This document shows, one piece after another, positions 1-23,543 of a stretch of DNA of 64,000 nucleotides. Position numbers and translations under genes: made by a program. How positions within the stretch are numbered: position 1 is the stretch's first letter; each line of letters starts with the position of its first letter. The stretch is taken from contig JBGAIQ010000001.1 of assembly GCA_044225365.1 (NCBI GenBank), positions 320,001-384,000 on the forward strand, read 5' to 3'. The notes below the pieces were generated by a model that did not search any database, was not told where the DNA came from, and saw only the letters and a program-made list of their open reading frames with translations. This DNA comes from Planctomycetota bacterium (GTDB lineage: Bacteria; Planctomycetota; B15-G4; JADJEK01).

Positions 1-324
1 GTAGCAAGTGAGCGTGAGGAGGAGGCTCGGTACGAAGGTCAGCACCGTGAGGAGGAGCATGACCTTGAGCGGAGCGGAGAGCTCGGAGGGCTTGCGGCCG
101 AGCAGCTCGGTGAGGCTGTCCTTCGCCTCGCCGTTCTCACCTTCGATCGGATCGACGTGGCGCGGTGTCTCGATCGGCGCCGATTCACCCGGGGGGTCGA
201 TGGGGCCGGTCTGCTGCGCGTGGAGCGGCAAGGTGGGGACGAGGATCACGAACGCGATCCACAGGAGGGCCGTGACGCGCCCGAGTCCGGATCGAATCGC
301 GGCGGCGGGGTTCGCGAGGTTCAT
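1..324 (-). CDS. fliP: Flagellar export protein FliP (5' part; runs off window edge)
   Basis: Not in the ORF track. Manual translation from ATG at 324 (ATGA overlap with the fliO stop) gives a signal-like N-terminus, then ELSAPLKVMLLLTVLTFVPSLLLTLTCY, matching FliP TM1. Directly follows fliO. Confidence 0.88.
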   Translation of the reverse strand, partial: MNLANPAAAIRSGLGRVTALLWIAFVILVPTLPLHAQQTGPIDPPGESAPIETPRHVDPIEGENGEAKDSLTELLGRKPSELSAPLKVMLLLTVLTFVPSLLLTLTCY

Positions 325-5038: not shown

Positions 5039-5821
5039 GTGGACAAGTTCTCGCTCATCGGCGCCATTCTCGGCCTCTTCGCCGTCTTCGGCGGCGCGTT
5101 GATGGAAGGTCTCCATTTCGACGCGATCATGATTCCGACTGCCGCGATCATCGTGTACGGCGGAACGATCGGCGCCGTCTTCCTCCAGTCGAGCGCGGAA
5201 GAGGTGAAGTTCGCGCGAACCATGCTGGGGCAGGTATTCAAGGAGAGCAAGCTCGACGCGGAATCGATCCTCGGGGAGATCCTCGAACTGTCGAAGATCG
5301 CGCGCCGCGACGGCATGCTCGCGCTCGAGACGAAACTCGCCACGATCTCCGACCCCTTCCTCGTGAAGGCCCTCGGACTGCTGATCGATGGAGTGGCCAG
5401 TAAGGAACTGCGCGAGCGGCTCGAGATCGCGATGGAGAAGGAAGAGGAGAAATTCGGGGACGCGGCCCGCGTGTACGAGGCGGCCGGTGGTTACGCCCCG
5501 ACGGTCGGGATTCTCGGCGCCGTGCTCGGCCTCATCCACGTCATGAAGTCCCTCGACGATCCCTCGAAGCTCGGTCCCGGTATCGCCGTCGCCTTCGTCG
5601 CGACGATCTACGGGGTCGCGACCGCGAACCTCATCGCGCTGCCGATCGCCGGAAAATTGAAGGCCCGGGGTCGAGCCCTGAAGGCCGCGCAGTCGATGAT
5701 CCTGGAGGGCGTCGCCGGCATCGCCGACGGGCAGCCCACCTCGGCGCTCGAATCCACGCTGCGCTTGATGCTCGGCGATCATGGCGGCGGCAAGCACGAG
5801 GGCGAGAAGAAGGCGGCCTGA
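5039..5821 (+). CDS. motA: Flagellar stator protein MotA
   Basis: ARRDGMLALE torque-residue motif, GYAPTVGILGAVLGLI, GIAVAFVATIYG; GTG start. Confidence 0.96.
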   Translation: MDKFSLIGAILGLFAVFGGALMEGLHFDAIMIPTAAIIVYGGTIGAVFLQSSAEEVKFARTMLGQVFKESKLDAESILGEILELSKIARRDGMLALETKLATISDPFLVKALGLLIDGVASKELRERLEIAMEKEEEKFGDAARVYEAAGGYAPTVGILGAVLGLIHVMKSLDDPSKLGPGIAVAFVATIYGVATANLIALPIAGKLKARGRALKAAQSMILEGVAGIADGQPTSALESTLRLMLGDHGGGKHEGEKKAA

Positions 5822-5847: not shown

Positions 5848-6576
5848 ATGGCGAGGAAGCACAAGCACGAAGAACACGTGAATCACGAGCGCTGGCTCGT
5901 GTCGTACGCCGACTTCATCACCCTCTTGTTCGCGTTCTTCGTGATCATGTACGCGCTCTCCGAGGTCGACAAGAACAAGCTGAAGAAGTTCGCGAACTCG
6001 GTGCAGTTCGCCTTCGCGCACGTCGGAACGGGCGGCACGCAGGCGATGGGGAAGAACCCGAATCAGAAGAAACCGAACATCATCGGCGATGCGTTTCCCA
6101 AGGGCGAGCGCAGTTCCGATCCGGGTCCGTACGAGAGTCTGCAAGGCGTCGTGAAGTACCTCGAGGAATCGCTCGTGAAGCATTTCCTCAAGGAAGAGAA
6201 GAGCAAGGCCGAGCTCATCGACGATGGAAAGGCCGTGATCGTCCGAATGCCCGTCGAGCGCCTGTTCGCGCCGTCGGGCGCGCAGCTGCGGCCCGACCGC
6301 TATCAGTTCCTGCAGGACCTCGGGTGGTGCATCCTGACCTATCACCTCAAGATCGAGGTGAACAATGAGGTCGAGCTGCCCTTCGGAGATCTCGAGCTCG
6401 GTCAGAACGATCTCGCCTGCCGCCGCGTGAATGCATTGGTGAGCGGGATCTGGAAGTCCAACGTAAGGAACAAGGTGAACATCATCTCGCGGGTGCTCCT
6501 CAAGGAACTGGACGAAGTGAAGCACTCCGAGGCGGAGAACGGTCGCTCGATCGTCGAATTCCGCTTCACGCGCTGA
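5848..6576 (+). CDS. motB: MotB-family stator subunit with degenerate OmpA-like domain
   Basis: HERWLVSYADFITLLFAFFVIMYALS (conserved Asp) follows motA; the C-terminal domain lacks GHTD, NWELS and NRRVE motifs. Confidence 0.85.
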   Translation: MARKHKHEEHVNHERWLVSYADFITLLFAFFVIMYALSEVDKNKLKKFANSVQFAFAHVGTGGTQAMGKNPNQKKPNIIGDAFPKGERSSDPGPYESLQGVVKYLEESLVKHFLKEEKSKAELIDDGKAVIVRMPVERLFAPSGAQLRPDRYQFLQDLGWCILTYHLKIEVNNEVELPFGDLELGQNDLACRRVNALVSGIWKSNVRNKVNIISRVLLKELDEVKHSEAENGRSIVEFRFTR

Positions 6577-6582
6577 GACGAC

Positions 6583-7296
6583 ATGGCGCATCGGACGGAG
6601 GTACGTGATCCCCTGCGCTCGGACCGGCCCTGGTCGTGGCGCGACTTCGTCGTCCTGCTCTATGCGCTGCTGTGGGTCCATCGCGGATTCGCCGATCTCG
6701 ATCGCGTTCACGCGGTGCGCAGCTCGTATGTCGCGCGAGCCGAAGCCGTTTCCGCAAGGGCGGAGCCGGCTCGGAAGCCAAGGATCGCGACGCCGCGGAT
6801 CGTCACTTGCGCGTGGCCATCCGGCGAACGTGTCCCCGAACCGGGCCCGTTCGTGACCCTCGAGGGCGTCATGAAGTTCCTCGAAGAGTCGATCGTGAAG
6901 AACTTCCGCAGGGAAGAGAAGATCAAGGCGCAGCTCATCGACGACGGGAAGGCCGTGATCGTCCGGATGCCCGTCGAGCGACTGTTCGCCCCGTCGGGCG
7001 CGGAGGTCCGAGCGGACCGCCGCCGGTTCCTCGAGGACCTCGGGTGGGTCATCGGGACCTACCGCGTGATGATCGAGGTGGACCATCGAATCGAACTCCC
7101 TCTGGGGGACCCGCAGGTCGGTCAGGACGATCTCACCACGCGGCGCTCGAATGCGGTGGTCCGCGTAATCTCGAAGGCGGACGCAGCGACCGGCGTGAAC
7201 GTCGTCTCCCGGGTCTGCCTCGAGGAATTCGGTGGCGGAAGGCCCGCCGGTGCCGAGCCCAGCCGATCGGTGTTCGAGTTCCGTTTCACGCGCTGA
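6583..7296 (+). CDS. Second MotB-like paralog (divergent TM segment)
   Basis: C-terminal half closely parallels 5848-6576 (identical LIDDGKAVIVRMPVERLFAPSGA, both end EFRFTR); N-terminal WSWRDFVVLLYALLWV aligns to WLVSYADF. Confidence 0.75.
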   Translation: MAHRTEVRDPLRSDRPWSWRDFVVLLYALLWVHRGFADLDRVHAVRSSYVARAEAVSARAEPARKPRIATPRIVTCAWPSGERVPEPGPFVTLEGVMKFLEESIVKNFRREEKIKAQLIDDGKAVIVRMPVERLFAPSGAEVRADRRRFLEDLGWVIGTYRVMIEVDHRIELPLGDPQVGQDDLTTRRSNAVVRVISKADAATGVNVVSRVCLEEFGGGRPAGAEPSRSVFEFRFTR

Positions 7297-7403: not shown

Positions 7404-8918
7404 TCAGCGGCCGACGGTCTGGAGGGCGCGGTCGACGAGTTTTCGCCAGGGGCGCAGCGCGGGAGTCGAGAAGCGCGGGGTCGAGCGCGGGTCCTTGCCC
7501 TCGGAGAGGAGGGTGAGGAGTTCGATGCCCATACGACAATCGGGATCGGCGGGAAGGGAGGCGAACGCATCGAGCGCGCGCTCGAACTCGCCGCAACCGA
7601 GGCGAGCTTGGCCAAGGCGGGGCATGACGAGACTCGCCTCCGCACCGTCCACCAGCGCTCTCTCGAGTTGCTCGGCGGCACCCGCGCAATCCCCGCAATG
7701 CAACAACAACTGCGCGAGGCGCAACCGTGTGCCGAAATCCTTCGGATGTGCAGCAAGGGCGTTCGCGTAGTCCGATGCGGCGCCGACGAGATCATTCCCC
7801 TCGAGGCGCAGCCGCGCGCGAAGCAGGTACGGATCGAGTTTCCCCGCGTCGAGAGCGATGGAGCGATCGAGGCAACGCATTGCGGCGCGACGGTGTGACA
7901 GGTTCGCCAGCGCACGGCCCATCCCGAAATACGCGTACGGCCCCGTGACGCCCGGCTCCGGCGGAATGGCGTGGAGCTGGCGATCCGCGAGCCGCAAGCG
8001 AGCGTACGTCCGGAACGAAGCGCGGTGATCGCCGGTCTTCGCCTGGAGGTGACCGAGGACGAACAGCAGATTAGGGGTCTCGCCGAAGCGCTTGCGACCG
8101 TCCGTGACGATCGCCAGTGCTCCCTCCACGTCGCCCCGATGTTCGGCCTCGAGAGCGAGCAGCGCGTAGATCTCGGGACAGAACGACAGGTCCTTCGAGT
8201 CGGAATGGGGCATCGACTCGACGAGTTTTCGCGCCGTGTTCAGGGCTCTCTCAGCCTCGTCGCGCTTGTCGTCGAAACGGCGCAAGAAGTCACCGTACTT
8301 GTACCAGGAGTACGCGTGATTCGGATGGAGCTCGATCTGACGCTGGAAGAGTCGCATGTTGCGCGCATCCTTGTCACGATCGAGGACTCGCTGTTTCAGG
8401 TAGCCATCGTGATGGACGACCGCGGAATCGAGCGGCCCGAGTTTCATTCCACGGCGCTTCGCGTAACCGATGAGCGACGGGATCACCTGCTCATGGATGC
8501 AGAACTCGAAGCGAATCGAGGGATCTCGGCGGAAGAGGCGCAGGATCCCACACTGATGGATGCGATCGCCGCCGAGGTGATTCAGGAACTTCAGGTAGTA
8601 GCCGCACACGCGCCGATTCTCGATCGCAGCGACGATCGCCTCGCCCGCGCCGGGCTCCAGCCACTCATCGGCGTCGAGTACCAGGATCCAGTCCTTCGTC
8701 GCGGACGCGAGGGAGAGGTTGCGGACGGCGGCAAAGTCGTCCTCGAACCGAGTCGTGATGACCTTGTCGGTGTAACGCCGCGCGACGGCAACGGTGTCAT
8801 CGGTCGATCCCGTGTCGACGATCACGATCTCGTCGACGAAGCGCTTCACCGAGTCGAGCATTCGCGGAAGCAGATCCGCTTCATTGCGAACGATCGCGGC
8901 GAGGGTGAGGGTCGTCAT
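7404..8918 (-). CDS. GT2 glycosyltransferase with C-terminal TPRs (flagellin glycosyltransferase-like)
   Basis: IVRNEA...VDTGSTDDT...DDFAAVRN...WILVLDADE, IHEQ, HHDGY, then TPR helices; start ATG 8918. Confidence 0.88.
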   Translation of the reverse strand: MTTLTLAAIVRNEADLLPRMLDSVKRFVDEIVIVDTGSTDDTVAVARRYTDKVITTRFEDDFAAVRNLSLASATKDWILVLDADEWLEPGAGEAIVAAIENRRVCGYYLKFLNHLGGDRIHQCGILRLFRRDPSIRFEFCIHEQVIPSLIGYAKRRGMKLGPLDSAVVHHDGYLKQRVLDRDKDARNMRLFQRQIELHPNHAYSWYKYGDFLRRFDDKRDEAERALNTARKLVESMPHSDSKDLSFCPEIYALLALEAEHRGDVEGALAIVTDGRKRFGETPNLLFVLGHLQAKTGDHRASFRTYARLRLADRQLHAIPPEPGVTGPYAYFGMGRALANLSHRRAAMRCLDRSIALDAGKLDPYLLRARLRLEGNDLVGAASDYANALAAHPKDFGTRLRLAQLLLHCGDCAGAAEQLERALVDGAEASLVMPRLGQARLGCGEFERALDAFASLPADPDCRMGIELLTLLSEGKDPRSTPRFSTPALRPWRKLVDRALQTVGR

Positions 8919-9091
8919 GGGCGGGTGCTCTCGAATCGATTCGTCGCGATGTCGCACGCGAGATGCCGCAAGGATTGCGGGTAGAGAGCGCACGCTCTCC
9001 ACAATCTCTCATCGGCGTTTCGATCGTCGAACTTGGGAGGAACCGAGTTCGCTCTCGCCGCGAGTGACGCGAAGGTTTTTCCCTGATCGCC

Positions 9092-9119
9092 TCAAGTTTC
9101 GAGCGAGATCTTCCGAATC
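9092..9119 (+). promoter_or_regulatory. Possible sigma-28-like promoter for the long flagellar operon
   Basis: TCAAGTTT...TCCGAATC (TCAA-N16-TCCGAATC) upstream of 9173/9203; weak match. Confidence 0.25.
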
Positions 9120-9172
9120 GTGTCGAGCGAAGATTCTTCCCTTTCGCACGAGCGAGGCGGAAGAGATCGCAA

Positions 9173-10960
9173 GTGGACCCACGAGAGACCCGAGCGCAGA
9201 AGATGAGCGACGACGAAGAGAACGTGAGCGGGAGCGGCGCTGAGGACGTCGGCGGTGAGCCGACGAATCCGATGCAGCCGCAAGACCTCGCCGCGGAGTC
9301 GAGCGAGGCGCTGCCGATGGGCGACGACTTCGAGGAGCTGCCGGAAAGCGACTCGAACGTCGACGACTCGCCGGAATCGCTGGACGAGAGTTCGCAGTTG
9401 CTCGATGCGTTCAAGTCGCTCGAAGCGGATCCGCTCGCGGACGAACTCGCTGGGGACGAGGCTTCATCCTCGCACGAGACGCCTCGGGACGTGCCCGAAC
9501 TCGACGAGGAAAAGCCGAAGAAGAAGCGTGCGACGCGATCCCGTTCCAGCAAGACGAAGAAGCCGCGCAAGCCGTCCGGGCGCAAGCGGACGAAGAAGTC
9601 CAAGGACGAACTGGTCGAGACGCCGAGGGAGCCGGCCGACGAATCAGCGGTCACGGGGGCACGAGAAGCGGAATTCGCTTCGATGTCGGAGGAGGTCGCT
9701 GCCGCGCCGGAAACGCGTACCGAGTCGAATCCTCCGGAGGATCGGCGTGCAGCGGAGAGTGCAGTCGGAGCCGCTGAGGCCGCTCCCGTCGGAGCCGACG
9801 GTTCGGCTTTCCCGTTCATGAACGACGGAGAACACTCGCTCGACGATCTCGTGATCGACAGTGCGGATCTGACCGACACCGAATTCGCCGCGGCCGAGAC
9901 CGTTGCGATCGAAGACGCGGCCCGCGCCGCTGTCGCCGAAGCTCGCGCATCCCGCACGTCGAACAACGCGCGAAGCGAGGATTCCGCTGCGGCCCACGAC
10001 TCGGTCGAGCCGGTCACCGACGCCCACACCGACGCGCCGGCGACGCCGTTCGCCAAGCGCCTGCTTTCGCGCCTCTCGTCCGCGTGGGCATCCAACACGG
10101 CCGCCGCGACCGCGAGTCGCTTTCGGCGAACGATCGTTCGATCGGTCGCGGTGGGTGTCTTCGCCATGGCCGCCGGATTCGGCTATGGCGCCGCGGTGAA
10201 GCTGTTCTTCGGCAAGAAGCACGCCGACTTGAACGGGAATCAGATCGCGAGTTCGGCGCCGACGAACTCGAACGATGCGGACCCCGCGACGCCCGTGATG
10301 AAGGGTGCGAAGCAGGACGAGCCCGCGTCCACCAAGGGCGACGCGAGCAAGACCGACGAGAAGTCGCCGCCTTCGACCCCGAGTACCGACCCCGAGTCGG
10401 TGACCGAGAAACCGCAGGCGGAACCAGCCGTGAACGATTCGCAGAAGAGCGAATCGGCTTCGTCGACCGCCGAATCGAAGGGCGAGAACTCCGAGCCTTC
10501 CACCGCGAAGACGACACCCGTCGCCCCTTCGAACGACGAGAAGGCGGATCCCGCTACGGCGAATCCGCTGTCGCAATCCGGCGACTCGAAAGCCCATGAT
10601 GCCGCGCCAGCGCGTTCGAAGGGCGCAGGGGGGTTCGAGATGCCTCCGCTGAAATCCGCGGTTCAGGACCCGAATCACCCGCTCGCGAAGGGCCGACGAG
10701 CCCTGGAGACCGGCGACTTCGTCGCAGCCCGCCGCATGGCGGCCGGCTACCTGCTCCGCGAGGACGGCCTCTCCGAACAAGATCGGTTGCTGGTTCCGCA
10801 AGCGTACGCGCTCCTCGCCGACGTGATGAAGCGGGAATGGACGGAGGCGCACTCCGCCGATCGGAAGCCCGCGGCGAAGGAGCCGGCGGCGGAGTCGCAG
10901 GGCGAGAAGCACGGTGGCGGCGAGAACGAGGGTGAGCATCTCGGAGGCGAGAAACCATGA
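9173..10960 (+). CDS. Hypothetical bitopic membrane protein: acidic disordered N-terminus, one TM, low-complexity linker, C-terminal TPR-like helices
   Basis: TM VAVGVFAMAAGFGYGAAVKLFF; C-terminal LAKGRRALETGDFVAARR...QAYALLAD; ATGA-coupled to the next gene; alternative start ATG 9203. Confidence 0.75.
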   Translation: MDPRETRAQKMSDDEENVSGSGAEDVGGEPTNPMQPQDLAAESSEALPMGDDFEELPESDSNVDDSPESLDESSQLLDAFKSLEADPLADELAGDEASSSHETPRDVPELDEEKPKKKRATRSRSSKTKKPRKPSGRKRTKKSKDELVETPREPADESAVTGAREAEFASMSEEVAAAPETRTESNPPEDRRAAESAVGAAEAAPVGADGSAFPFMNDGEHSLDDLVIDSADLTDTEFAAAETVAIEDAARAAVAEARASRTSNNARSEDSAAAHDSVEPVTDAHTDAPATPFAKRLLSRLSSAWASNTAAATASRFRRTIVRSVAVGVFAMAAGFGYGAAVKLFFGKKHADLNGNQIASSAPTNSNDADPATPVMKGAKQDEPASTKGDASKTDEKSPPSTPSTDPESVTEKPQAEPAVNDSQKSESASSTAESKGENSEPSTAKTTPVAPSNDEKADPATANPLSQSGDSKAHDAAPARSKGAGGFEMPPLKSAVQDPNHPLAKGRRALETGDFVAARRMAAGYLLREDGLSEQDRLLVPQAYALLADVMKREWTEAHSADRKPAAKEPAAESQGEKHGGGENEGEHLGGEKP

Positions 10961-12537
10961 GTCCCGTCGCACGCACGCTACCGCTCGCCACACTGTTCCT
11001 CGCGATCGTCCCGAGCCTGACGAGAGCACAGTCGGAGATCGAACTCCTGCCGCGACACCCCGAGGTGGTTGCGCGCGAGGGCAAGGATCACTCGATGCGC
11101 TTCACCGTTCGTGGTCGCGATTGTGCGATCGTCGACTACCTCGCGGTGCTCGCGGAGCGCGGCGGGATCTCGATCGTGAGCGATGAGATCGCGAAGATCC
11201 AGTTGAAGGCGACGCTCGCGACGGTCGAGCTCTACGACCGACGGATCGATCAGATCATCGAGCTGCTCGCCGCCGACGCCGGAGTCGACTCGGAAGTGGA
11301 TTCGACGGGCGAGAAGTTCAAGCTCGTCGGGGTCGCAGCGGGAAGCGATCGCGCCCTGCTTCGCAACTCGATCGAGCAGTTCTACAAGATGGCGCTCGCT
11401 CGCCAGGGCGACGACGAGACGAACGCGCGCTGCCTCGCGGGTCTGGCCGAGATCCTGGAGAGATCCGGTGACTATGCCGGGGCGTACGCGTCCTTCGAGC
11501 AGTTGCTCGCGGAGCACTCGAGCTCGCCGTTCTCCACGGACGCCGAACTCAATCTCGCCGACTGCTACATGCAGCTCGATCAGAATGCACGCGCCAATCG
11601 GGTGCTGCGATCGTTCCTCGCCAAGTGCTCCGACCCAAAGCGCGCGGAGAAGGCGCTGCGTCGACTCGTGAAGCTCCTACTCGAGCAGAAGCGCTTCCCG
11701 GAGTTGGTGACGATGCATGAGGCGTTCGAGCGCATCGGCGTCCTCGAGGGCGAAACACTCGTGGAACTCGCCGATGCGGGCGCCGTGATGATCGAGGAGA
11801 GCGACGTCGACGTCTCCACGTTCCTCCTCGGCTGCTTCCGTGCGTTTCCGAAGGAGCACGCGATGCTCGGTCCCGTCCTCGCGCTCGCCTTCACGAAGCG
11901 CGGTGACGACGAGGCTTCTCGCATCATCCTCGAGAAAACCGCCCAGTCGCTCGACAATACGATCGATTCGACGTCGGCGCTCCTCGCGTACAGCGAGCTC
12001 TCGCGACGCGCCGGTCACTTCCCCGCGGCGTTGCTGTTCGCCGAACGTGCAGTGATGAAGTCCGAGAACAATCCCGTCCTTCGTCGCCGCGCGCATCTGC
12101 TGCTCGTCGACGTCTACGACGCTCTCGGCGACGCACCGCGCGTCTACCACCATCTCTGGGAGGCCGAGCAACTGTCGTCGCTCGAAGATGCACCGAAGCT
12201 CGCTCTCCGCGCCGCCGAGTTCGCGATGGATCGCAACGAACCCGAGCATGCGCGACTGCTGTTCCATTCCGCGGGCCAGTACGAGGGTGTCGGCCTCGAC
12301 GCCAGTCTCGGCGAAGCTCGCGCGCTGCTCCTCGCCGGGGACACCGATCGAGCCATGATGCATCTCGAGGCCCTCCTCCGCGACGACATGAGCGCAACGG
12401 AGCGCCGACGGGTCGAACTCTTGATGGTCGACTGTCATCGTGTCGCGCACGAGTACGACAAGGCCCTGGCCGCTCTCGAAGGCAATCCGCCGGAAACGAA
12501 GACGCCGGACGCGAAGGCGCCGGAGGCGAAGAAATGA
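10957..12537 (+). CDS. Secreted TPR protein with N-terminal STN-like domain
   Basis: Signal peptide (..SLTRA-Q), then FTVRGRDCAIVDYLAVLAERGGISIV...TVELYDRRIDQIIELLAADAGV (STN-like), then many TPRs. Confidence 0.75.
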   Translation: MSPVARTLPLATLFLAIVPSLTRAQSEIELLPRHPEVVAREGKDHSMRFTVRGRDCAIVDYLAVLAERGGISIVSDEIAKIQLKATLATVELYDRRIDQIIELLAADAGVDSEVDSTGEKFKLVGVAAGSDRALLRNSIEQFYKMALARQGDDETNARCLAGLAEILERSGDYAGAYASFEQLLAEHSSSPFSTDAELNLADCYMQLDQNARANRVLRSFLAKCSDPKRAEKALRRLVKLLLEQKRFPELVTMHEAFERIGVLEGETLVELADAGAVMIEESDVDVSTFLLGCFRAFPKEHAMLGPVLALAFTKRGDDEASRIILEKTAQSLDNTIDSTSALLAYSELSRRAGHFPAALLFAERAVMKSENNPVLRRRAHLLLVDVYDALGDAPRVYHHLWEAEQLSSLEDAPKLALRAAEFAMDRNEPEHARLLFHSAGQYEGVGLDASLGEARALLLAGDTDRAMMHLEALLRDDMSATERRRVELLMVDCHRVAHEYDKALAALEGNPPETKTPDAKAPEAKK

Positions 12538-13691
12538 AGACCGCCATCGTCTGTTTTGCCCTGGGAGTGGGTTTCGCCTACACGGTGTTCGACGGCGAGT
12601 CGCCGGCGCCGGTCCAGGCACCCGCGAAGCCCGAGACCGACCCCAAGAAGGCCAAGGAGCCCGCAGCGGAGCCCGCACCGGCGCCAGATGCGTCGAAGAA
12701 GCCAGCGGATCCAAACGCGAAGCCCGCCGAGCCGGACGCGAAGCCTGCGGATCCGAATGCAAAGAAAGAAGAGAAGCCGGAAGCGGCGGTTCCGGAAGCG
12801 AAGGACGTTGCGCGGCCCCTCCCGCACGACGGAACGGAGGAAACCGGTCCGAGTGTGTCGGTGCCGACGGTGACGGCGACCGCGACCGGTGGATCCCTCG
12901 CGCCCGACATCGGGTCCTACGAGAACGGACAGGAAGAGGCCGCGCGCATCGTCGCGGAGGCGACGAGCGGACTCGAGAGCCAGACACCGCTCAGCGATCA
13001 GGAGATGAAGGCGCTCCTCCGCGACGTCCTCGGCGGCGCCGATAGCGACGTCAGCGCGCTGGACGTGCTCGAGAAGCAAGTCCTCCAGGAACGGCTCGAA
13101 CTGAACGCCCTCATCGGCCAGGGACCCGACGCAAAGAGCCTCCTCGACAAGATCCCGGGATTCAACGACGAACTCGAGAAGATCGGGATTCCGGCCGACA
13201 TCGCGGAGCAGATTCGCAATCTCTCCGCCAAGGTCATCGAGCTGCACGGCGAGAAGAGTCTGCGCGACTGGACCAAGTACGAAGAGATCGGCAAGAAATC
13301 CGAGCCCGAGGGCTTCAAGTCGATCACGGATCCGAGCGCTACCGCGGAAGCGGCGCCGCCTCCGCCCAAGACCCGGCCGCGGTCCTCGCTTCCGAAGCTC
13401 GAAGCCGCATTGCTCTTCCAATCGGGCAACGCGGACGAGGCTCTCGAGATCCTCTCGAAGCTGCCCGAGGGCGACCTCGCTGCGCAGGATCGGTTCATCC
13501 TCGGAAGCTGCCTCGTCGCGAAGCGACAGTTCGAGCAGGCCGCGGCCGTCCTGAAGCCGCTCGCCGAGTCGAAGGACAGCGACATGCTCGCACAGGCTGC
13601 GAAACGTCAATTGAAGCGCATGGAGATGATCGAAGCCGGACTCGTCGGCCTCGATCCGCTCGAGAAGGCGCGCGTGGAGAATCAGAAATGA
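12534..13691 (+). CDS. Membrane-anchored or secreted Pro/Ala-linker protein with C-terminal TPR
   Basis: Hydrophobic N-terminus, Pro/Ala/Lys-rich linker, C-terminal LLFQSGNADEALEIL...FILGSCLVAKRQFEQAAAVL; ATGA overlaps on both sides. Confidence 0.75.
   Translation: MKTAIVCFALGVGFAYTVFDGESPAPVQAPAKPETDPKKAKEPAAEPAPAPDASKKPADPNAKPAEPDAKPADPNAKKEEKPEAAVPEAKDVARPLPHDGTEETGPSVSVPTVTATATGGSLAPDIGSYENGQEEAARIVAEATSGLESQTPLSDQEMKALLRDVLGGADSDVSALDVLEKQVLQERLELNALIGQGPDAKSLLDKIPGFNDELEKIGIPADIAEQIRNLSAKVIELHGEKSLRDWTKYEEIGKKSEPEGFKSITDPSATAEAAPPPPKTRPRSSLPKLEAALLFQSGNADEALEILSKLPEGDLAAQDRFILGSCLVAKRQFEQAAAVLKPLAESKDSDMLAQAAKRQLKRMEMIEAGLVGLDPLEKARVENQK
12699..12764 (+). repeat. 21-bp coding repeat x3 (KPA[DE]P[ND]A)
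   Basis: KPADPNA-KPAEPDA-KPADPNA-K in the linker of 12534-13691. Confidence 0.7.
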
Positions 13692-14950
13692 CCAAGTCTC
13701 CTTCCACCCTCGAGAAGGGCGGCGATCTCGCCGCGCTCCGCGCCCTCTCGGACGCTGCGCGCCGCGTCGAGGCCGCATACTCCAAGCTGCGCCACGGCGC
13801 TGCGCGGCTCGATCAGGAACTCGCCGACGCGAATCGCCGACTCGAGCAGAAGGTCGTCGAGTTGGAACACCTCTCGGGGTCGCTCGCCGCCGTGCTCTCC
13901 GCGATCCCGTGCGGGGTCGTGGTCGCGGATGGCGACGGCGTGGTGATCATGGCGAATCCCGCGGCGCAGCGGATCCTCGGCGTGAGCCAGAAGGATCTGC
14001 TGGGACGGCCGGCCGCCTCGGTCGTCGACGAGAACGGCCAGAAGCTCCTGCTCCTGCCGCGCGGTGAATGTTCCGACATCGAGCGGCCGGTCGCTTCCCC
14101 CGACTCCAAGGAAGGGGCTCGGATCGTTCGCGGCAGCGTGGTTGCCGTGAAGGACGCCGCCGGCGAATTCCTCGGTCGCGTCGAACTGCTCGACGATCGG
14201 ACCGAAGTGAAGACATTGGAGGAAGAAGTGCGACGCCTCGACCGGCTGGCCGAGCTCGGTCGCGTCGCCGCGATCCTCGCCCATGAGATCCGCAATCCGC
14301 TCTCCGGCATCCGGGGCTTCGCCGGGATGCTCGAGCGAAAGCTCAAGGATGGGGACGGTCGTGAATCCGAACTTCGCTACGCCCGCCGGATCTGCGAGGG
14401 CGCGGATCGCGCCGACGCGATCATCGACAGCGTGCTCTTCCTCGCTCGCCCGCGCCCGCTGCGTCACGAGACCGTCGACGTCGAGAGCTTCTTCTGCGAT
14501 TGCTGGGAGAGCGTTGCGCATGCCGATCCCGCTCGCGCCAGGGGCGTCGAGGTCAAGCTCGACGTCTCGCCCCGCGGCCTCGCGATCCACGCCGATCGAG
14601 TGCGCCTCGCTCAGGGCGTCTCCAACCTCCTCACGAATGCTCTCCATGCGACGAGCTCGACCGGTGGCAAGGGACACATCGAACTCTCGGCGCGGGTGAA
14701 CGGCGAATTCATGACCCTGCGAATCGCGGACGACGGCCCGGGCATCGATCGGGAATCGTTGCCGCATCTCTTCGAACCGTTCTTCACGACGAAGAGCGAG
14801 GGCGCGGGCCTCGGCCTCGCGCTGGTCCAGCGCGTCGCGGAGCTGCATGGCGGCAAGGTCCGCGTGACGAGCGAGAAGGGCAAGGGCGCGGCGTTCTGCC
14901 TCGACCTCCCGATGCACAAGAACCTCGAGACGGAAACGGCCTGCGCATGA
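13688..14950 (+). CDS. Cytoplasmic PAS histidine kinase, FleS/FlgS-like
   Basis: N-terminal coiled coil, PAS (ANPAAQRILG), H-box LAHEIRNPL, DDGPG, FEPFFTTK, GAGLGL; no TM. Confidence 0.9.
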   Translation: MTKSPSTLEKGGDLAALRALSDAARRVEAAYSKLRHGAARLDQELADANRRLEQKVVELEHLSGSLAAVLSAIPCGVVVADGDGVVIMANPAAQRILGVSQKDLLGRPAASVVDENGQKLLLLPRGECSDIERPVASPDSKEGARIVRGSVVAVKDAAGEFLGRVELLDDRTEVKTLEEEVRRLDRLAELGRVAAILAHEIRNPLSGIRGFAGMLERKLKDGDGRESELRYARRICEGADRADAIIDSVLFLARPRPLRHETVDVESFFCDCWESVAHADPARARGVEVKLDVSPRGLAIHADRVRLAQGVSNLLTNALHATSSTGGKGHIELSARVNGEFMTLRIADDGPGIDRESLPHLFEPFFTTKSEGAGLGLALVQRVAELHGGKVRVTSEKGKGAAFCLDLPMHKNLETETACA

Positions 14951-16416
14951 TCGAGAACGTACTGATCGTCGACGACGAACCGCTGGCGCGCGAGTTCCTC
15001 GCGGAGTTCCTCTCCGACAAGGGAATCCACGTGGTCGCCTGCGACAACGCGCAGGACGCTTTCTCCCGGCTCACCGAAGGCCGCTTCGACCTGGTGATCA
15101 CGGATCTGCGGATGCCCGGCGACGATGGGTTCGCGCTCTTGCGCCGGATCCGACTTTCCGGCCGCGAGCTTCCGGTGATCGTGAACACGGCGTACGGCTC
15201 GGTCGACGCCGCAGTGAAGGCCCTGAAGGAAGGCGCGTTCGACTTCCTCACCAAGCCGCTGCGACCGGAGCTCATCGATTCGGTGCTGGCGAACGTCTCG
15301 CAGTACATCGCTCAATCGAATTCGAGCGGTGTCGCCGGTACGGCCGGACTCGCCGCGCCGCCGATCGACCGCGCTCGCGCGTGTCTCTCGGCTGGCATGC
15401 CGCTCGTCGGCAAGTCGCAGGCGCTGCGCGGACTCGTCGACACCGCGATCCGTGTCGCGAGGTCGCGCGCCACGGTCCTGATCACGGGCGAGAGCGGCAC
15501 GGGCAAGGAGTTGTTCGCCCGCCTCATCCACAAGGAATCGCCGCGGCGCGACCGGCCGTTCGTGCGCGTCAACTGCGCGGCGCTCGCGGAGACGCTCCTC
15601 GAGAGCGAGTTGTTCGGACATGAGCGCGGCGCGTTCACCGGTGCGGTCGCGCGGCGCGAGGGTCGCTTCGAACTGGCGGATGGTGGCACGTTGTTCCTCG
15701 ACGAGATCGGAGAGACGAGTCCCGCGCTGCAGGCGAAGCTCCTGCGCGTGCTCGAAGAGCGGGAGTTCGAGCGTGTCGGCGGCAGCAAGACGCTGACGAC
15801 CGACGTCCGCGTCATCGCGGCGACGAATCGCGACCTCGAGAAGGAGATCGCCGCCGGCAAGTTCCGCGACGACCTGTTCTATCGCCTGAAGGTGGTACAG
15901 CTCGCGATCCCCGCGCTGCGGGAGCGTCGCGACGACATCGAAGCGCTCGCGCTGCACTTCCTCGAGAAGTACGCCCGCGAGAACGGCTCGCGCGTGAAGC
16001 GCATCAGCGACGCTGCGATGACAATGCTGAAGACGCAGGGCTGGCAGGGCAACGTGCGCGAGCTCGAGAACGCGATCGAGCGCGCCGTCGTCCTCGATCC
16101 CGGCGAGACCCTCGAGCCGAGGCACTTCGGCATCGCCGGCGTCAGCGGAACGGGTGACGAGGCGGGCGCGACGGGCGTGCCCGACGTCTCGGCGCACGTC
16201 GGATGCACGCTCGAGCGGGTCGAACGCGCGCTCATCCTGCGAACGCTCGAGAGCACGGGCAATCGCCGCAAGGAAGCGGCGCGCATCCTCGGCGTCACGC
16301 CGCGCACGCTCACGAACAAGATCGCTCAATTCCGTCGCGAAGGGATCCATGTCGGGCCGCCGCAGCGCCAGCGCGCGGGGGTCGGTGCGATGGCCTTCCA
16401 CTCCGAGGAGGTTTGA
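14947..16416 (+). CDS. Sigma-54-dependent response regulator, FleR/FlgR/FlrC-like
   Basis: REC (LIVDDE, TDLRMP), GESGTGKE, GAFTGA, FRDDLFYRL, HTH; true start ATG 14947. Confidence 0.93.
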   Translation: MIENVLIVDDEPLAREFLAEFLSDKGIHVVACDNAQDAFSRLTEGRFDLVITDLRMPGDDGFALLRRIRLSGRELPVIVNTAYGSVDAAVKALKEGAFDFLTKPLRPELIDSVLANVSQYIAQSNSSGVAGTAGLAAPPIDRARACLSAGMPLVGKSQALRGLVDTAIRVARSRATVLITGESGTGKELFARLIHKESPRRDRPFVRVNCAALAETLLESELFGHERGAFTGAVARREGRFELADGGTLFLDEIGETSPALQAKLLRVLEEREFERVGGSKTLTTDVRVIAATNRDLEKEIAAGKFRDDLFYRLKVVQLAIPALRERRDDIEALALHFLEKYARENGSRVKRISDAAMTMLKTQGWQGNVRELENAIERAVVLDPGETLEPRHFGIAGVSGTGDEAGATGVPDVSAHVGCTLERVERALILRTLESTGNRRKEAARILGVTPRTLTNKIAQFRREGIHVGPPQRQRAGVGAMAFHSEEV

Positions 16417-16418
16417 TC

Positions 16419-16754
16419 ATGCAAGCCGATAGCACTCGTTTGTTGACCGCGGCCCTCGACGGGCTCGCAGCTCGCCAGCGCGCGATCTCCGCGAACCTCG
16501 CGAACAGCAGCACGCCGGGGTACAAGCGCATGACCGTCAGTTTCGAGGATCAGCTCGAGAGCGCGAAGAAGGGCATCTCCATCGCGCCGAAGTTCGATCG
16601 CGACTCTGCACAGGGTGGCCCGGACGGCAACAACGTCGACCCCGCTACCGAAGTCGGGCAGCTCACGCGCGTCGAGCTCAGTTACCAGGTGATCGCCCGG
16701 GCCGTGGCGATGGAATCGAATCAACTCCGCGCCGCGATCAGCGGTCACGCGTGA
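16419..16754 (+). CDS. flgB: Flagellar basal-body rod protein FlgB
   Basis: RQRAISANLANSSTPGYK, DGNNVD; start ATG 16419. Confidence 0.93.
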   Translation: MQADSTRLLTAALDGLAARQRAISANLANSSTPGYKRMTVSFEDQLESAKKGISIAPKFDRDSAQGGPDGNNVDPATEVGQLTRVELSYQVIARAVAMESNQLRAAISGHA

Positions 16755-16777
16755 ATCGAGAAAGCAGGCAAGCGAAC

Positions 16778-17197
16778 ATGTCGAACAAGATCGAACCCTT
16801 TCGCGCACTCGACATCGCCGGCTCCGGCCTCTCGGCCGAGCAGAAGCGGCTCGAGATCATCGCCGGCAACCTCGCAAACGCGCAGACGACGAAGACTCCC
16901 GAGGGTGGCCCGTACCGTCGCAAGGAAGTCGTTTTCAAGACGATCTACGACGGACAGGACCGTGCGCCGATCGTCAAGGTCGCGGGCGTCCACTCGGACG
17001 ACAGCGACTTCAAGCGCGTCTTCAAGGGCGTGGGGGCGCCCGATGCGGACAAGGACGGATACGTCGCGTATCCCAACGTCGACGCCGTCTACGAGATGGT
17101 GGACATGATGGAGGCGATGCGCTCCTACGAGGCGAATCTGCGCTCGATCAAGACGTTCCGGACGATGGCGGACGCAGCCCTGCAGATCGGTCGCTGA
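16778..17197 (+). CDS. flgC: Flagellar basal-body rod protein FlgC
   Basis: GSGLSAEQKRLEIIAGNLANA, PYRRK, YPNVD...EMVDMMEAMRSYEAN. Confidence 0.96.
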   Translation: MSNKIEPFRALDIAGSGLSAEQKRLEIIAGNLANAQTTKTPEGGPYRRKEVVFKTIYDGQDRAPIVKVAGVHSDDSDFKRVFKGVGAPDADKDGYVAYPNVDAVYEMVDMMEAMRSYEANLRSIKTFRTMADAALQIGR

Positions 17198-17208
17198 GGA
17201 GGAATCCC

Positions 17209-17529
17209 ATGGAAGCACTCGCACTCGATGCCATCTCGAACGGTCTGTCCAACATCACGAGGCCGGAGCGGAACTCGTCGGTCACCCCCGCGCGTGGCGA
17301 CGGCTTCGGTACGACGTTTCGCGACCTGCTCGGCAACGTGCTCGAGACGTCGGAGACGAAGCAGAACGAAGCGACGCAGATCACCGAGTCGTTCGCGAAG
17401 GGCGAGTCCCAGGACCTCCATCGCGTGATGACCGCGCTCAACGAAGCCGACGTCTCCTTCCGCCTCGTGCTCGAAGTGCGCAACAAGCTCGTCGACGCCT
17501 GGCAAGAGATCAAGCGGATGCCGATCTGA
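17209..17529 (+). CDS. fliE: Flagellar hook-basal body protein FliE
   Basis: DLHRVM...LVLEVRNKLVDAWQEIKRMPI. Confidence 0.95.
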   Translation: MEALALDAISNGLSNITRPERNSSVTPARGDGFGTTFRDLLGNVLETSETKQNEATQITESFAKGESQDLHRVMTALNEADVSFRLVLEVRNKLVDAWQEIKRMPI

Positions 17530-17579
17530 GGTTCGCCTCGTAGGCGAATGGGAACGAATAGGAATCGCGGAGAGACCCC

Positions 17580-19187
17580 TTGAAGCAGTTGCTCGCACAA
17601 CTCACGCAGATCTGGTCGGGCGGAACGCCGACCCAGCGCGTGCTCGGAATCCTGTCGCTCGTCATCGTCGGGCTCGGGATCGGCGGCGGCGTCTGGTTCG
17701 CGATGCGGCCGGATCATGCGCTCCTGTTCGGCAATCTCGATCCCGCGGACGCGGGTCTCGTCGTCGAGCAGGTTCGCAAAGCCGGCGTCGAGGCCGAGGT
17801 CCGCGGCGGCGGCACGGCCGTCTACGTCCCGTCGAACAAGGTCGACGAGATGCGCATGATCGTCGCGCAGGCCGGACTGCCGAAGACGAGCGGGACGGGA
17901 TGGGAGCTGTTCGATACTTCCAGCTTCGGGATCTCCGACTTCGTGCAGAACATCAACTTCCTGCGCGCCAAGCAGACTTCGCTCGAGCGGGCGATCGCGA
18001 AGTTCGACGGCGTCGAGAGCGCGACCGTCGAGATCACGAAGGCGAAGGAATCGGCGTTCGTCGCGGCCTCCGAGCCGGCGAAGGCGTCGGTGATGGTGGC
18101 CCTCAAGGCCGGACGGCAGCTCAGCCCGGAAAGCGTTCGCGCCATCACGCACCTCGTGGCCGGTGCGATCGACGGCCTCGACGCGAGCAACGTCAGCGTG
18201 ATGGACACCAAGATGCACCTGCTGTCGGAAGCCGGCGGCGGGCCGCTCGCGATCAACACCAGCAACCAGATCGACTATCAGCGCAACTCCGAGGACTACC
18301 TCGGCCACAAGGCGGAGGGCCTCCTCGCGCTCGCGGGAATCGCGGGTGCGGTGCGAGTGAATCTCGACATCGATTTCCAGCACGTGAAGCAGACTTCCGA
18401 GAAATTCGATCCCGTAGGAACTGCGACCAGCGAGACGCTGGAGACCTCCTCGACGCAGAGCGGTACCAATGGCAACAAGGGCGCCGTCTCCGCGAAGGAG
18501 CAGATCGATCCGAAGACCCAGGACACGAGCGGGGGCGAGACGTCGAACGAGACGAAGGAGACGAGCAAGACCGAGAAGAAGGTCGGCCGCACCGTCAAGT
18601 CCGAGGAGAACGCGACGCCCGTCGTGAAGCGTCTGTCCGTCAGCCTCGTCGTCCAGGACCAGTTCAAGGACAAGCTGAAGGACATCGAGAAGATCGTGAA
18701 GAGCGCGGTCGGCTTCGACGACAAGCGCGGCGACGTCCTGAACTCGATGGTGGGTGCGCTGGAAGCGGCGAAGCCCGTCACGGATCTTCCCGTCGCGGCG
18801 CCGATGTGGCCCGCCCTCGTCGAGCGCGGCATCCAGATCGTCGGCGTCCTCGGCGCGCTGTTCGTCCTCCTCAAGCTGATCAAGGCGATCGAGAGCAAGC
18901 CGGGCACGGTCCGCGCGGTCCCGATCATCTCCGCGAACGGCACCGTCATCCAGGTGGAGCCTGGCGCTCCGCTGCCACCCGGCGCGCGCAGCATCGCGCC
19001 AGAGGCCGCGAATCCGCAGGTGCTGACTGCACCGACCCGGGGCGGAGTGGTGACGGCGGCGTCGGCCGCGGTCCAGGCCGAGCACTCGCCGAATCTTCCG
19101 GACTTCGTCCGCGAGACCGTGAAGACGGATCCCGCCGGCGCGACGCGCGTCCTCCAGAGCTGGCTGCGTGAAGGGGAGCACAACTGA
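17580..19187 (+). CDS. fliF: Flagellar MS-ring protein FliF
   Basis: Two TMs, LFGNLDPADAG, GWELFD, PAKASVMV, VAGAIDGL, SAVGFDDKRGD; TTG start. Confidence 0.94.
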   Translation: MKQLLAQLTQIWSGGTPTQRVLGILSLVIVGLGIGGGVWFAMRPDHALLFGNLDPADAGLVVEQVRKAGVEAEVRGGGTAVYVPSNKVDEMRMIVAQAGLPKTSGTGWELFDTSSFGISDFVQNINFLRAKQTSLERAIAKFDGVESATVEITKAKESAFVAASEPAKASVMVALKAGRQLSPESVRAITHLVAGAIDGLDASNVSVMDTKMHLLSEAGGGPLAINTSNQIDYQRNSEDYLGHKAEGLLALAGIAGAVRVNLDIDFQHVKQTSEKFDPVGTATSETLETSSTQSGTNGNKGAVSAKEQIDPKTQDTSGGETSNETKETSKTEKKVGRTVKSEENATPVVKRLSVSLVVQDQFKDKLKDIEKIVKSAVGFDDKRGDVLNSMVGALEAAKPVTDLPVAAPMWPALVERGIQIVGVLGALFVLLKLIKAIESKPGTVRAVPIISANGTVIQVEPGAPLPPGARSIAPEAANPQVLTAPTRGGVVTAASAAVQAEHSPNLPDFVRETVKTDPAGATRVLQSWLREGEHN

Positions 19188-22697: not shown

Positions 22698-23543
22698 ATG
22701 GGCAACGTGATCTCACGCGTCGTACTCGTCGCATTCGCCGTGGTCGGCCTGTTCACCGCCGGCCTCATCGGGACGCTCGGCGTCCGCGGCAAGCTGAACC
22801 GCGAATCGCTCGCGGAACTCGCGGGAGTGAAGGACGAGAACGCCGAGAAGCCAGCGGGCGAGGAAAGCGCGACGGGCGACGTTTCGAAGGACGCGGCCAA
22901 GTCGAACGCCGAGGACGGCAAGGAGCACGGCAAGGAGGCGGCCCCGAACGGAGGGCGTGCCGAATCGTCGCCGCATGCCGTAGCTTCGCTCGCCAGCGCG
23001 GGCCTCGATCGCATCGTGCTGCCCGATCCGTTCTCGAGCGAGAAGACTCACGAACTCTTCGAAGAGCTCGAAGCGACCCGCAGCGAGCTGAAGAACCAAC
23101 TGATCGCCGCACGGCAGAAGGAAGCCGATCTCGAGCTCATCCGGGCGGACCTGAATCGCCGCTGGGACGAGCTCGATCAGCGCGAACAGGAGCTCGAGGA
23201 GTCCCGCAAGGGTGTCGAGGCCGACAAGGTCGACCTGCGCGACAAAACGGTCCTTCTCGAAGAAGCCGAAGATGCGAACTTGAGAGATGCAGCCAAAAAG
23301 ATCGAAAAGATGAAAGCGCAGGCGGCCGCCGCCCTGCTCGAGACGAAGGATCCGGCCATGGCGGCGAAGATCCTGAGCAGTATCGGTGACCGCGAGGCGG
23401 GCAAGATCATGGAGAACCTGAAGCCGGAGTTCCTGAGCAAGGTCCTCGAGAAGGCGATCAACATCATCCGACCGAAGTCGGTGGGATCGAGTTCGACGTC
23501 GAAGGACGGTTCGGGCAGCGCGCCAGGCCAGGACAAGCCGTGA
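22698..23543 (+). CDS. YlxF/MotE/FlbB-like protein (TM, coiled coil, MgtE_N-like domain)
   Basis: IEKMKAQAAAALL...AAKILSSIGDREAGKIMENL; position after fliJ. Confidence 0.75.
   Translation: MGNVISRVVLVAFAVVGLFTAGLIGTLGVRGKLNRESLAELAGVKDENAEKPAGEESATGDVSKDAAKSNAEDGKEHGKEAAPNGGRAESSPHAVASLASAGLDRIVLPDPFSSEKTHELFEELEATRSELKNQLIAARQKEADLELIRADLNRRWDELDQREQELEESRKGVEADKVDLRDKTVLLEEAEDANLRDAAKKIEKMKAQAAAALLETKDPAMAAKILSSIGDREAGKIMENLKPEFLSKVLEKAINIIRPKSVGSSSTSKDGSGSAPGQDKP

Follow-up and report, generated by a model that had tools for sequence, protein, structure and literature searches.

A TPR protein trio with a secretin-type N0 domain heads a flagellar basal-body operon in Planctomycetota: a candidate periplasmic motor scaffold

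Periplasmic scaffolds of tetratricopeptide repeat (TPR) proteins account for the ability of some bacteria to arrange more stators, on a wider radius, around the flagellar motor; those characterised so far come only from Campylobacterota, spirochaetes and a few alpha-proteobacteria. PflA of Campylobacter jejuni and Helicobacter pylori is a superhelix of 16 TPRs with an N-terminal beta-sandwich; it dimerises with the membrane-anchored PflB via its N-terminal domain and linker, and the resulting spokes and rim hold 17 stators (Drobnic et al., PMC12222027). The periplasmic TPR proteins MotK and MotC of Cereibacter sphaeroides and Sinorhizobium meliloti are needed for rotation and bind MotE and MotB (PMC10954123, PMC13023049); MotK itself consists of an AMIN domain followed by TPRs (PMC13023049), binds MotE and MotB2 and is required for rotation (PMC10954123). 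The spirochaete collar is formed by the TPR-rich periplasmic proteins FlcA and FlcB on membrane-anchored FlbB (PMC13023049). An E-ring of FlgY, FlbB or MotE with PflA-like TPR spokes has been argued to be ancient and widespread (Feng et al., PMC11870540; a 2026 review, PMC13023049); these works link E-ring proteins of the FlbB/FlgY type to TPR spokes and count TPR proteins encoded close to flagellar genes in about 52% of flagellated species (PMC11870540, PMC13023049). Here we describe three genes, A, B and C (orfA to orfC, Table 1), that head a flagellar basal-body operon and may encode a scaffold of this kind. They lie in a window of 64,000 nucleotides, the whole stretch of DNA analysed, from a Planctomycetota bacterium (assembly GCA_044225365.1, contig JBGAIQ010000001.1, positions 320,001 to 384,000 of the forward strand).

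All three genes are genuine, conserved and coupled at the level of translation. ATGA stop/start overlaps at 10957, 12534, 13688 and 14947 chain them to a FleS/FlrB-like histidine kinase and then to a sigma-54-dependent response regulator, behind which the operon runs into flgBC and fliEFG. A first-pass annotation, made from the letters without database searches, had described this chain and had given the three open reading frames (ORFs) no classical fli/flg identity; all four overlaps and the gene order were verified, and no fli/flg family match was obtained for A, B or C in Pfam or NCBIfam. The third-position GC content of the three genes is 0.80-0.82 and is high from ~9158 onward, which makes translation of the long acidic N-terminus of A probable. 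Because the next gene upstream, which encodes a GT2 glycosyltransferase fused to TPRs (GT2-TPR), is divergent, A is the first gene of the plus-strand unit. No terminator-like sites were found on the plus strand within 8800-17600. A scan with the sigma-54 promoter pattern, allowing up to two mismatches, gave 32 matches against 36.6 expected, none of them useful upstream of A, and the sigma-70 promoter scan returned 0 sites. The sequencing runs that matched the locus were bioreactor metagenome DNA runs, with no RNA run among those listed.

A, B and C keep their order and position in relatives, far beyond chance. An alignment-based scan of genome contigs with B gave eight loci, all of the window's own family. 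The arrangement of a minus-strand GT2-TPR gene followed by A, B, C, the histidine kinase (HK), the response regulator (RR), flgBC and fliEFG is kept in seven of the eight, and the contig of the eighth ends first. A single-protein pattern scan of genome contigs with B returned 21 stretches, none of them a relative. Six loci from other flagellated families of the order, selected through FliF without regard to B, all hold the same three architectures in the same gap, which measures 3.2-4.4 kb from the GT2-TPR gene to the kinase. In genome G012, B looks frameshifted.

The phyletic distribution was assessed with the N-terminal domain of B (N-domain). Within the class (42 genomes), FliF was present in 22 and the N-domain in 20, all FliF-positive, and none of the 20 FliF-negative genomes (16 of family f3, 4 of f5) carried it. 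The one flagellated genome of family f5 is also the one with the cassette. Of the two FliF-positive genomes without an N-domain match, G009 is 70% complete, and in G011 the contig (L020) ends within B. In a sample of the phylum (401 genomes), 70 had the N-domain at E<=0.001 and 227 had FliG_C; 60 of the 70 were also FliG_C-positive, against a background of 227/401 (cross-tabulated by hand). None of the ten N-domain matches in FliG-negative genomes was stronger than E 2e-6, and they may represent other STN proteins or incomplete genomes. The order-level profile under-detects, as genome G072 was missed by it yet gave E 4.7e-23 with a broader model.

Twenty loci with matches from outside the order were fetched, and 16 of these matches sit 2-3.5 kb upstream of the HK/RR genes and/or flgB. 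Two others are on contigs too short to judge, and two (L122, L123) are not adjacent; no flagellar genes were seen at the N-domain locus of L123, and L122 (L122:7095-13408, minus strand) encodes a sigma-54 regulator, a STAS protein, an A-like and a B-like protein, then an MltA lytic transglycosylase and a hemerythrin protein. At L113, from another family (L113:7161-12047, minus strand), the order is motA, motB (with plug and OmpA domains), a B-like gene, a C-like gene and flgB, with no A-like gene and no kinase or regulator between; the L109 cassette likewise precedes flgB without a kinase or regulator between. The flagellar linkage put forward by the first-pass annotation was borne out by this neighbourhood and phyletic profiling, and no match to a described non-flagellar family was found. 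We hold a connection of the trio with the flagellum to be very probable. The same annotation had called the cassette lineage-specific, which did not hold: it is not confined to the window's family and is widespread in one large part of the phylum, which the N0-type trio marks.

Two further observations concern this distribution. The FliG_C scores of the phylum sample fall into two groups, ~1e-42 to 1e-47 and ~1e-22 to 1e-37, and most N-domain matches come from genomes of the lower-scoring group, a hint that the phylum may hold two flagellar lineages. In many other planctomycete lineages the trio is flanked by sigma-54 regulators on both sides, a second enhancer-binding one being encoded immediately before the cassette (L107, L108, L110, L112, L114, L118, L120, L125, L126 and L136).

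B has a hydrophobic, signal-like N-terminus and is predicted to be secreted. Its AlphaFold2 model, built with 20 homologues, had a mean predicted local distance difference test (pLDDT) score of 86.7 and comprises an alpha/beta domain (residues 36-124) and a TPR superhelix of helical hairpins (residues 133-507), for which Pfam TPR matches were also obtained. This agrees with the earlier label of B as a secreted TPR protein. Modelled alone, the N-domain had a pLDDT of 94.3 and the element order b-a-b-a-b-a-b-b. Foldseek ranked PilQ (4av2, E 9.6e-4) first, then XcpQ, GspD N0, FecA, DotD and InvG N0. VIA-align gave Z 7.5-8.8 and a root-mean-square deviation (rmsd) of 2.0-3.6 over 71-85 residues with periplasmic domains of the FecR type, the signalling domains of FoxA and FecA, DotD, and the N0 domains of XcpQ, GspD and PilQ; these Z values are middling taken alone, and are complemented by a sequence profile. 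Built from 25 N-domains sampled across the phylum and compared with the Protein Data Bank (PDB), this profile matched PilQ 6w6m (E 3.1e-6), HofQ (1.5e-4) and PilQ N0 4ar0 (2.4e-4), and 13 of its 16 matches were secretins. By predicted fold and profile, then, the N-domain belongs to the secretin N0/STN superfamily (Pfam PF07660, PF21305), and its sequence profile is closest to the N0 of PilQ, HofQ and GspD. Residues 36-124 share this fold and profile relationship with the secretins PilQ, HofQ and GspD and with FecA-type proteins, but B has no secretin or TonB-dependent barrel, the domain being fused instead to a TPR superhelix. N0 domains are docking modules for inner-membrane partners.

The first-pass description of B as STN-like therefore holds at the level of fold and profile, that is, of the superfamily, but not by Pfam for the window protein itself. 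Neither B nor any of 13 N-domains gave a Pfam STN match at E<=10, where the N-domains drew a mere scatter of chance matches to other families, and the B of relative L122 matched it at E 5.4e-4 with 20.2 bits, under the cut-off of 28.4. The structural comparison proposed for each protein was likewise informative in part: Foldseek on the N-domain identified the N0/STN fold, but full-length B returned generic TPR proteins only, with no PflA, PflB or FlcA among the Foldseek and VIA matches listed, which is not evidence of absence. Consensus TPRs also dominated the PDB profile search with full-length B, and a protein homologue search with B returned seven proteins, all annotated as TPR.

Against 1.84 billion cluster representatives, the N-domain profile gave 3151 protein matches at E<=0.001, 295 of them at E<=1e-10. 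Among the best 150, 37 had a single matched stretch and 113 had 2-15 stretches. The single-stretch proteins comprised 25 that were B-like (473-611 amino acids (aa), stretch near the N-terminus), 4 longer forms (756-1002 aa, stretch mid-protein), 1 of 744 aa and 7 fragments. When 14 retrieved proteins were scanned with Pfam, six of the seven multi-stretch proteins had Pfam STN and six of the seven single-stretch proteins had TPRs only. As a separate observation, two of the seven scanned multi-stretch proteins are secretins with extra N0/STN copies, and the profile also retrieves huge proteins with up to 15 tandem STN/N0-like stretches, such as P0019 (4694 aa), P0087 (7341 aa) and P0080 (3250 aa).

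A is, as predicted from its sequence, a bitopic inner-membrane protein. A single hydrophobic segment near residues 324-342, the predicted transmembrane (TM) segment, would separate an acidic, low-complexity cytoplasmic N-terminus from a low-complexity periplasmic linker. Over the length of A, only the TM segment and a C-terminal module of ~60 aa are conserved among relatives; this module is a TPR-like helical hairpin (residues ~517-560) with an invariant Arg (orfA residue ~520) in a G-x4-A-R context. Relatives of A are 140-310 aa long with the same TM segment and C-terminal module, the low-complexity cytoplasmic part varies from ~30 to ~320 aa, and A-like proteins of other lineages carry more TPRs. 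The bitopic protein with a disordered part and a C-terminal TPR that had been read from the letters is thus recognisable in A, although A had no Pfam hit, TPR included. The otherwise poorly conserved N-termini of orfA homologues (window residues ~48-60; L107, L108, L114, L073, L074, L013-L016) have in common a short acidic-hydrophobic motif of the types DLFNFDEL, DDFEEL, PPFDAVP and IEDELL, which might be a binding peptide for a cytoplasmic partner.

In some relatives, A and B are joined. They form one 950-aa ORF in genome G015 (L069:10069-12921, minus strand), and since this ORF has a single TM segment and no second signal peptide, we regard a true fusion as more likely than an assembly error. 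Further fused forms of 756-1002 aa are P0028, P0035, P0101 and P0123, and the three of these that measure 950-1002 aa have TPR matches on both sides of the N0 stretch. The layout of the fusions is an acidic N-terminus, one TM segment, a TPR-like part, N0 and a TPR superhelix, again with no second signal peptide.

A complex was modelled from residues 30-512 of B (alignment of 20) and the last 106 aa of A (alignment of 16). All three runs scored 0.80, against 0.21 for the best of 3 controls; among reference pairs, 116 of 157 solved complexes and 2 of 215 mismatched ones attain this mark, a calibration that is rough, since custom alignments were used. The score expresses confidence in the prediction and is no measurement of binding. 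The pLDDT of the partner was at least 67, and the runs had at least 64% of contacts in common. In the modelled interface, the A hairpin contacts residues 88-109 (N0) and 129-166 (linker and first TPR helices) of B. Conservation at this interface is slightly above background (0.58 vs 0.51 for B, 0.49 vs 0.32 for A), a comparison that is not independent of the model alignments. The natural fusions place the A hairpin directly before the N0 of B, in agreement with the complex model, which supports docking of A at the N0/TPR junction of B.

C begins with a hydrophobic segment that is either a signal peptide or an anchor. A Pro/Ala/Lys-rich linker (residues ~24-100), present only in the window's family, is followed by a helical middle and a C-terminal TPR (residues ~285-365). 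The linker and TPR of the anchored Pro-linker protein described at first reading were thus found, and its anchoring is one of two readings of the N-terminal segment. Consensus TPRs dominated the PDB profile search with C, in which 9hmf_L (E 0.014) did no better than unrelated TPR proteins. NCBIfam FlcA gave no match to A, B or C at E<=0.1.

Compared with the PflA/PflB pair (PMC12222027, PMC12054838, PMC11870540), B resembles PflA in its predicted secretion, its globular N-terminal domain and its long TPR part, and A resembles PflB in its predicted membrane anchor and its TPR-type part. The pairing through the N-terminal region that was measured for PflA and PflB is modelled for A and B, and both systems are tied to flagellar genes, and the window holds a candidate gene for an E-ring protein of the FlgY/FlbB type. 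PflB is characterised by a TM segment and a large TPR body with a central beta-strand pair, a combination that A does not show. The planctomycete cassette has a third protein, C, and heads a sigma-54 basal-body operon. In MotK, the extra N-terminal domain is AMIN, taken from the secretin region of the type IV pilus (PMC10954123, PMC13023049), whereas that of B is N0; the planctomycete system also differs from MotK/MotC in having three proteins, one of them membrane-anchored. The membrane-anchored FlbB on which the spirochaete TPR proteins sit (PMC13023049) has a candidate TM-anchored counterpart in the window, P0012.

The first-pass annotation, which itself named PflA and PflB, put the trio forward as a candidate novel motor scaffold; a reading of TPR proteins encoded beside flagellar genes as PflA/PflB-like spokes has already appeared in print, planctomycete rows included (PMC11870540). 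Supplementary Table 5 of Feng et al. 2025 lists flagellum-proximal 'TPR-1..6' proteins as candidate PflA/PflB homologues, with many planctomycetes, among them Phycisphaera mikurensis (493, 196 and 254 aa) and two anammox genera (608 and 611 aa, plus 167 and 312 aa) (PMC11870540). The anammox lengths are those of the B- and A-like ORFs at L125 and L126, so members of the trio have probably already been catalogued, without domain analysis. In PMC7183148, Planctomycetes are mentioned only in a figure legend, and a limited literature search returned no account of this planctomycete trio and none of N0 as part of a flagellar scaffold. What is new here is N0 in place of a beta-sandwich, a minimal membrane anchor and a third TPR protein.

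In the reading that we favour, and to which we give somewhat better than an even chance, A is the inner-membrane anchor of B, and a periplasmic scaffold built from B and C positions the stators. In such an arrangement, the periplasmic C-terminal hairpin of inner-membrane A would dock on the junction of N0 and the first TPRs of B, and the TPR superhelix of B, together with C, would form a scaffold that encircles the basal body. In function this scaffold would resemble the spoke and rim built by PflA and PflB, MotK/MotC of alpha-proteobacteria and the spirochaete collar. It would probably work with the FlbB/FlgY-like E-ring protein, FliL and the periplasmic domains of MotB, which are encoded in the same supercluster, and the outcome would be that stators are positioned or stabilised. 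The location in the motor, the stator scaffolding and any partners beyond the A-B pair are what we infer. The earlier proposal of a periplasmic stator scaffold is upheld in its flagellar linkage and its PflA/PflB-like architecture, and its structural part stays a proposal.

Several points weigh against the scaffold. The function is read from gene context and models, and related genomes are not independent samples. PflA and MotK have a beta-sandwich or AMIN N-domain, whereas B has an alpha/beta N0/STN domain, and PflB has ~800 aa of TPR, whereas A of the window's family has one conserved hairpin of ~60 aa. Among the matches listed there was no specific sequence or fold match to PflA, PflB or FlcA, only generic TPR neighbours. 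At L122, no flagellar structural genes lie within ~10 kb, and the FliG gene of that genome is on another contig. In 11 of 12 FliG-anchored loci of other planctomycete families, no N0-type gene was found within ~17 kb; at least two of those 11 have a TM+TPR or large TPR protein in the same position, and from these loci a TPR protein heading the flagellar operon appears to be more general than the N0-type trio. Finally, the cassette is next to or between sigma-54 regulators in most lineages, which fits a regulatory or assembly role too.

This regulatory context bears on a role as a trans-envelope sensor, in which A and B, with or without C, would report the periplasmic assembly state to the soluble PAS kinase and the sigma-54 regulator; the STN/N0 domain would act as in FecA-FecR-type cell-surface signalling, and the cytoplasmic N-terminus of A would be the output. 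Having no membrane segment, the kinase requires an input. The cassette stands directly before the HK-RR pair in seven of the eight family loci and in most loci elsewhere, often with a second sigma-54 regulator upstream, but the L113 and L109 cassettes precede flgB with neither gene between. At L122, A and B stay with a sigma-54 regulator and STAS, not with structural genes. Among the best VIA neighbours of the N-domain are periplasmic domains of FecR-type anti-sigma proteins (Z 8.8, rmsd 2.0, 74 aligned) and the signalling domains of TonB transducers (FoxA Z 8.7; FecA Z 8.4), whereas its sequence profile is nearest to the N0 of PilQ, HofQ and GspD, not to transducers. The fused form resembles FecR in topology, with a cytoplasmic part, a TM segment and a periplasmic part that contains STN. 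However, Pfam and NCBIfam searches of A, B and C gave no anti-sigma factor, no extracytoplasmic function (ECF) sigma factor and no TonB-dependent barrel; the neighbours are sigma-54 regulators; and the cytoplasmic region of A is low-complexity and variable in length, and a loose acidic-hydrophobic motif is all that the homologues share there. We consider a sensor unlikely. A more specific form of it would be a FecR/FecA-style checkpoint, in which the N0/STN-TPR protein senses an assembly intermediate (rod, E-ring or stator docking) and, via A, switches the FleS-like kinase and the sigma-54 regulator; this we rate as slightly less probable still.

As a transient assembly factor, the TPR/N0 complex would act like a pilotin or chaperone: it would assist the rod or the P and L rings in crossing the peptidoglycan or in reaching the outer membrane, and would leave afterwards. 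PilF/PilW and BamD are TPR assembly factors. PilF was a fold neighbour (Z 13.8, rmsd 6.1, 217 aligned) and BamD and PilW were among weak NCBIfam matches, but TPR similarity of this kind is generic. N0 domains dock secretins to inner-membrane platforms, and the trio genes, by their sequence context, appear at the head of an early basal-body operon. The A-B pair of L122 is followed by the MltA lytic transglycosylase, a neighbour seen in only 1 of 20 loci. The genome has ordinary FlgH and FlgI, and the membrane anchoring of A and the fusions suit a fixed structure equally well. We judge this role, like that of a sensor, to be unlikely. With FlgI and FlgH present, the trio as a replacement for the P and L rings was rejected. 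Weak NCBIfam matches to YbgF, PrsT and BcsC TPRs, all far below cut-offs, and the conserved GT2-TPR neighbour would suit general envelope TPR proteins (Tol-Pal/YbgF-like or polysaccharide-related) that lie beside flagellar genes by chance, but the N-domain is in 0 of 20 FliF-negative class genomes and translational coupling to flagellar regulators is kept in distant lineages, and this phyletic pattern makes a non-flagellar envelope role highly improbable.

The scaffold reading draws in other genes of the window (Table 1). Upstream, beyond the GT2-TPR gene, lie motA, motB and a MotB paralogue and, further away, flagellin, fliD, fliS and fliO; an FlbB/FlgY-like gene, fliL, fliM and fliN follow farther downstream in the same plus-strand run as the trio. 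The FlbB/FlgY-like gene is placed after fliI and a fliJ-like ORF and before fliL, and encodes an N-terminal TM segment, a long coiled coil and an MgtE_N-like head, an architecture that suits an E-ring protein of the FlbB/FlgY/MotE kind. It matched Pfam MgtE_N at E 8e-4, below the Pfam cut-off, and NCBIfam collar_FlbB at E 3.2e-7 with 30 bits, below the cut-off of 110. We regard its product, from these matches, as a candidate E-ring protein of the FlbB/FlgY type and, under the scaffold model, as a probable partner of the TPR proteins. MotB aligns over its full length with an OmpA-positive MotB and has 'EVNNE' where that protein has 'EGHTE'; the paralogue, encoded directly behind it, corresponds to the C-terminal half of MotB, with no plug and no family match. 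The scaffold had also been tied to MotB proteins that lack peptidoglycan-binding residues. The window MotB indeed has no Pfam OmpA match, but B and C at L113 directly follow an OmpA-positive MotB, and the link is weak. The GT2-TPR gene adjoins the cassette in every family locus, in the other families of the order and at L118; it had a weak SunS-like NCBIfam match and could encode a flagellin or envelope glycosyltransferase.

Table 1. Coordinates, in the window, of the trio, its predicted domains and the flagellar genes around it.
Feature	Position	Strand	Remarks
orfA (A)	9173..10960	+	595 aa, GTG start; ATG 9203 is a possible true start
A, predicted TM segment	~10142-10198		
A, TPR-like hairpin	~10721-10852		
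orfB (B)	10957..12537	+	526 aa
B, alpha/beta N-domain	~11062-11328		
B, TPR superhelix	~11353-12477		
orfC (C)	12534..13691	+	385 aa
C, C-terminal TPR	~13386-13628		
FleS/FlrB-like histidine kinase	13688..14950	+	soluble; PAS-HisKA-HATPase, no TM
FleR/FlrC-like response regulator	14947..16416	+	sigma-54 enhancer-binding; receiver/sigma-54/Fis
flgB	16203..16754	+	true start probably later
flgC	16751-17197	+	
fliE	17209-17529	+	
fliF	17580-19187	+	
fliG	19187-20197	+	
fliH, fliI	to 22182	+	continue the operon
FlbB/FlgY-type E-ring candidate (P0012)	22698..23543	+	281 aa
motA	5039-5821	+	stator gene upstream of the cassette region
motB	5848-6576	+	plug domain, no Pfam OmpA match
MotB C-terminal paralogue	6583-7296	+	237 aa
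GT2 glycosyltransferase fused to C-terminal TPRs	7404..9002	-	divergent from orfA

The cassette is conserved across a large, mostly uncultured part of Planctomycetota, for which it offers a conserved parts list: a membrane anchor, an N0-TPR protein, a third TPR protein and an FlbB-like protein encoded in the same operon. It also gives a testable docking interface, together with natural fusions, and a way to ask how stators are held when the peptidoglycan-binding motif of MotB has decayed. N0 would be the third secretin-derived module recruited to a flagellar operon, besides AMIN (PflA/MotK) and N1 (PflD). The finding extends a known theme incrementally, unless the signalling role proves true; the checkpoint, if it is real, would be an envelope-to-cytoplasm sensor of flagellar assembly of a kind not described for any flagellar hierarchy.

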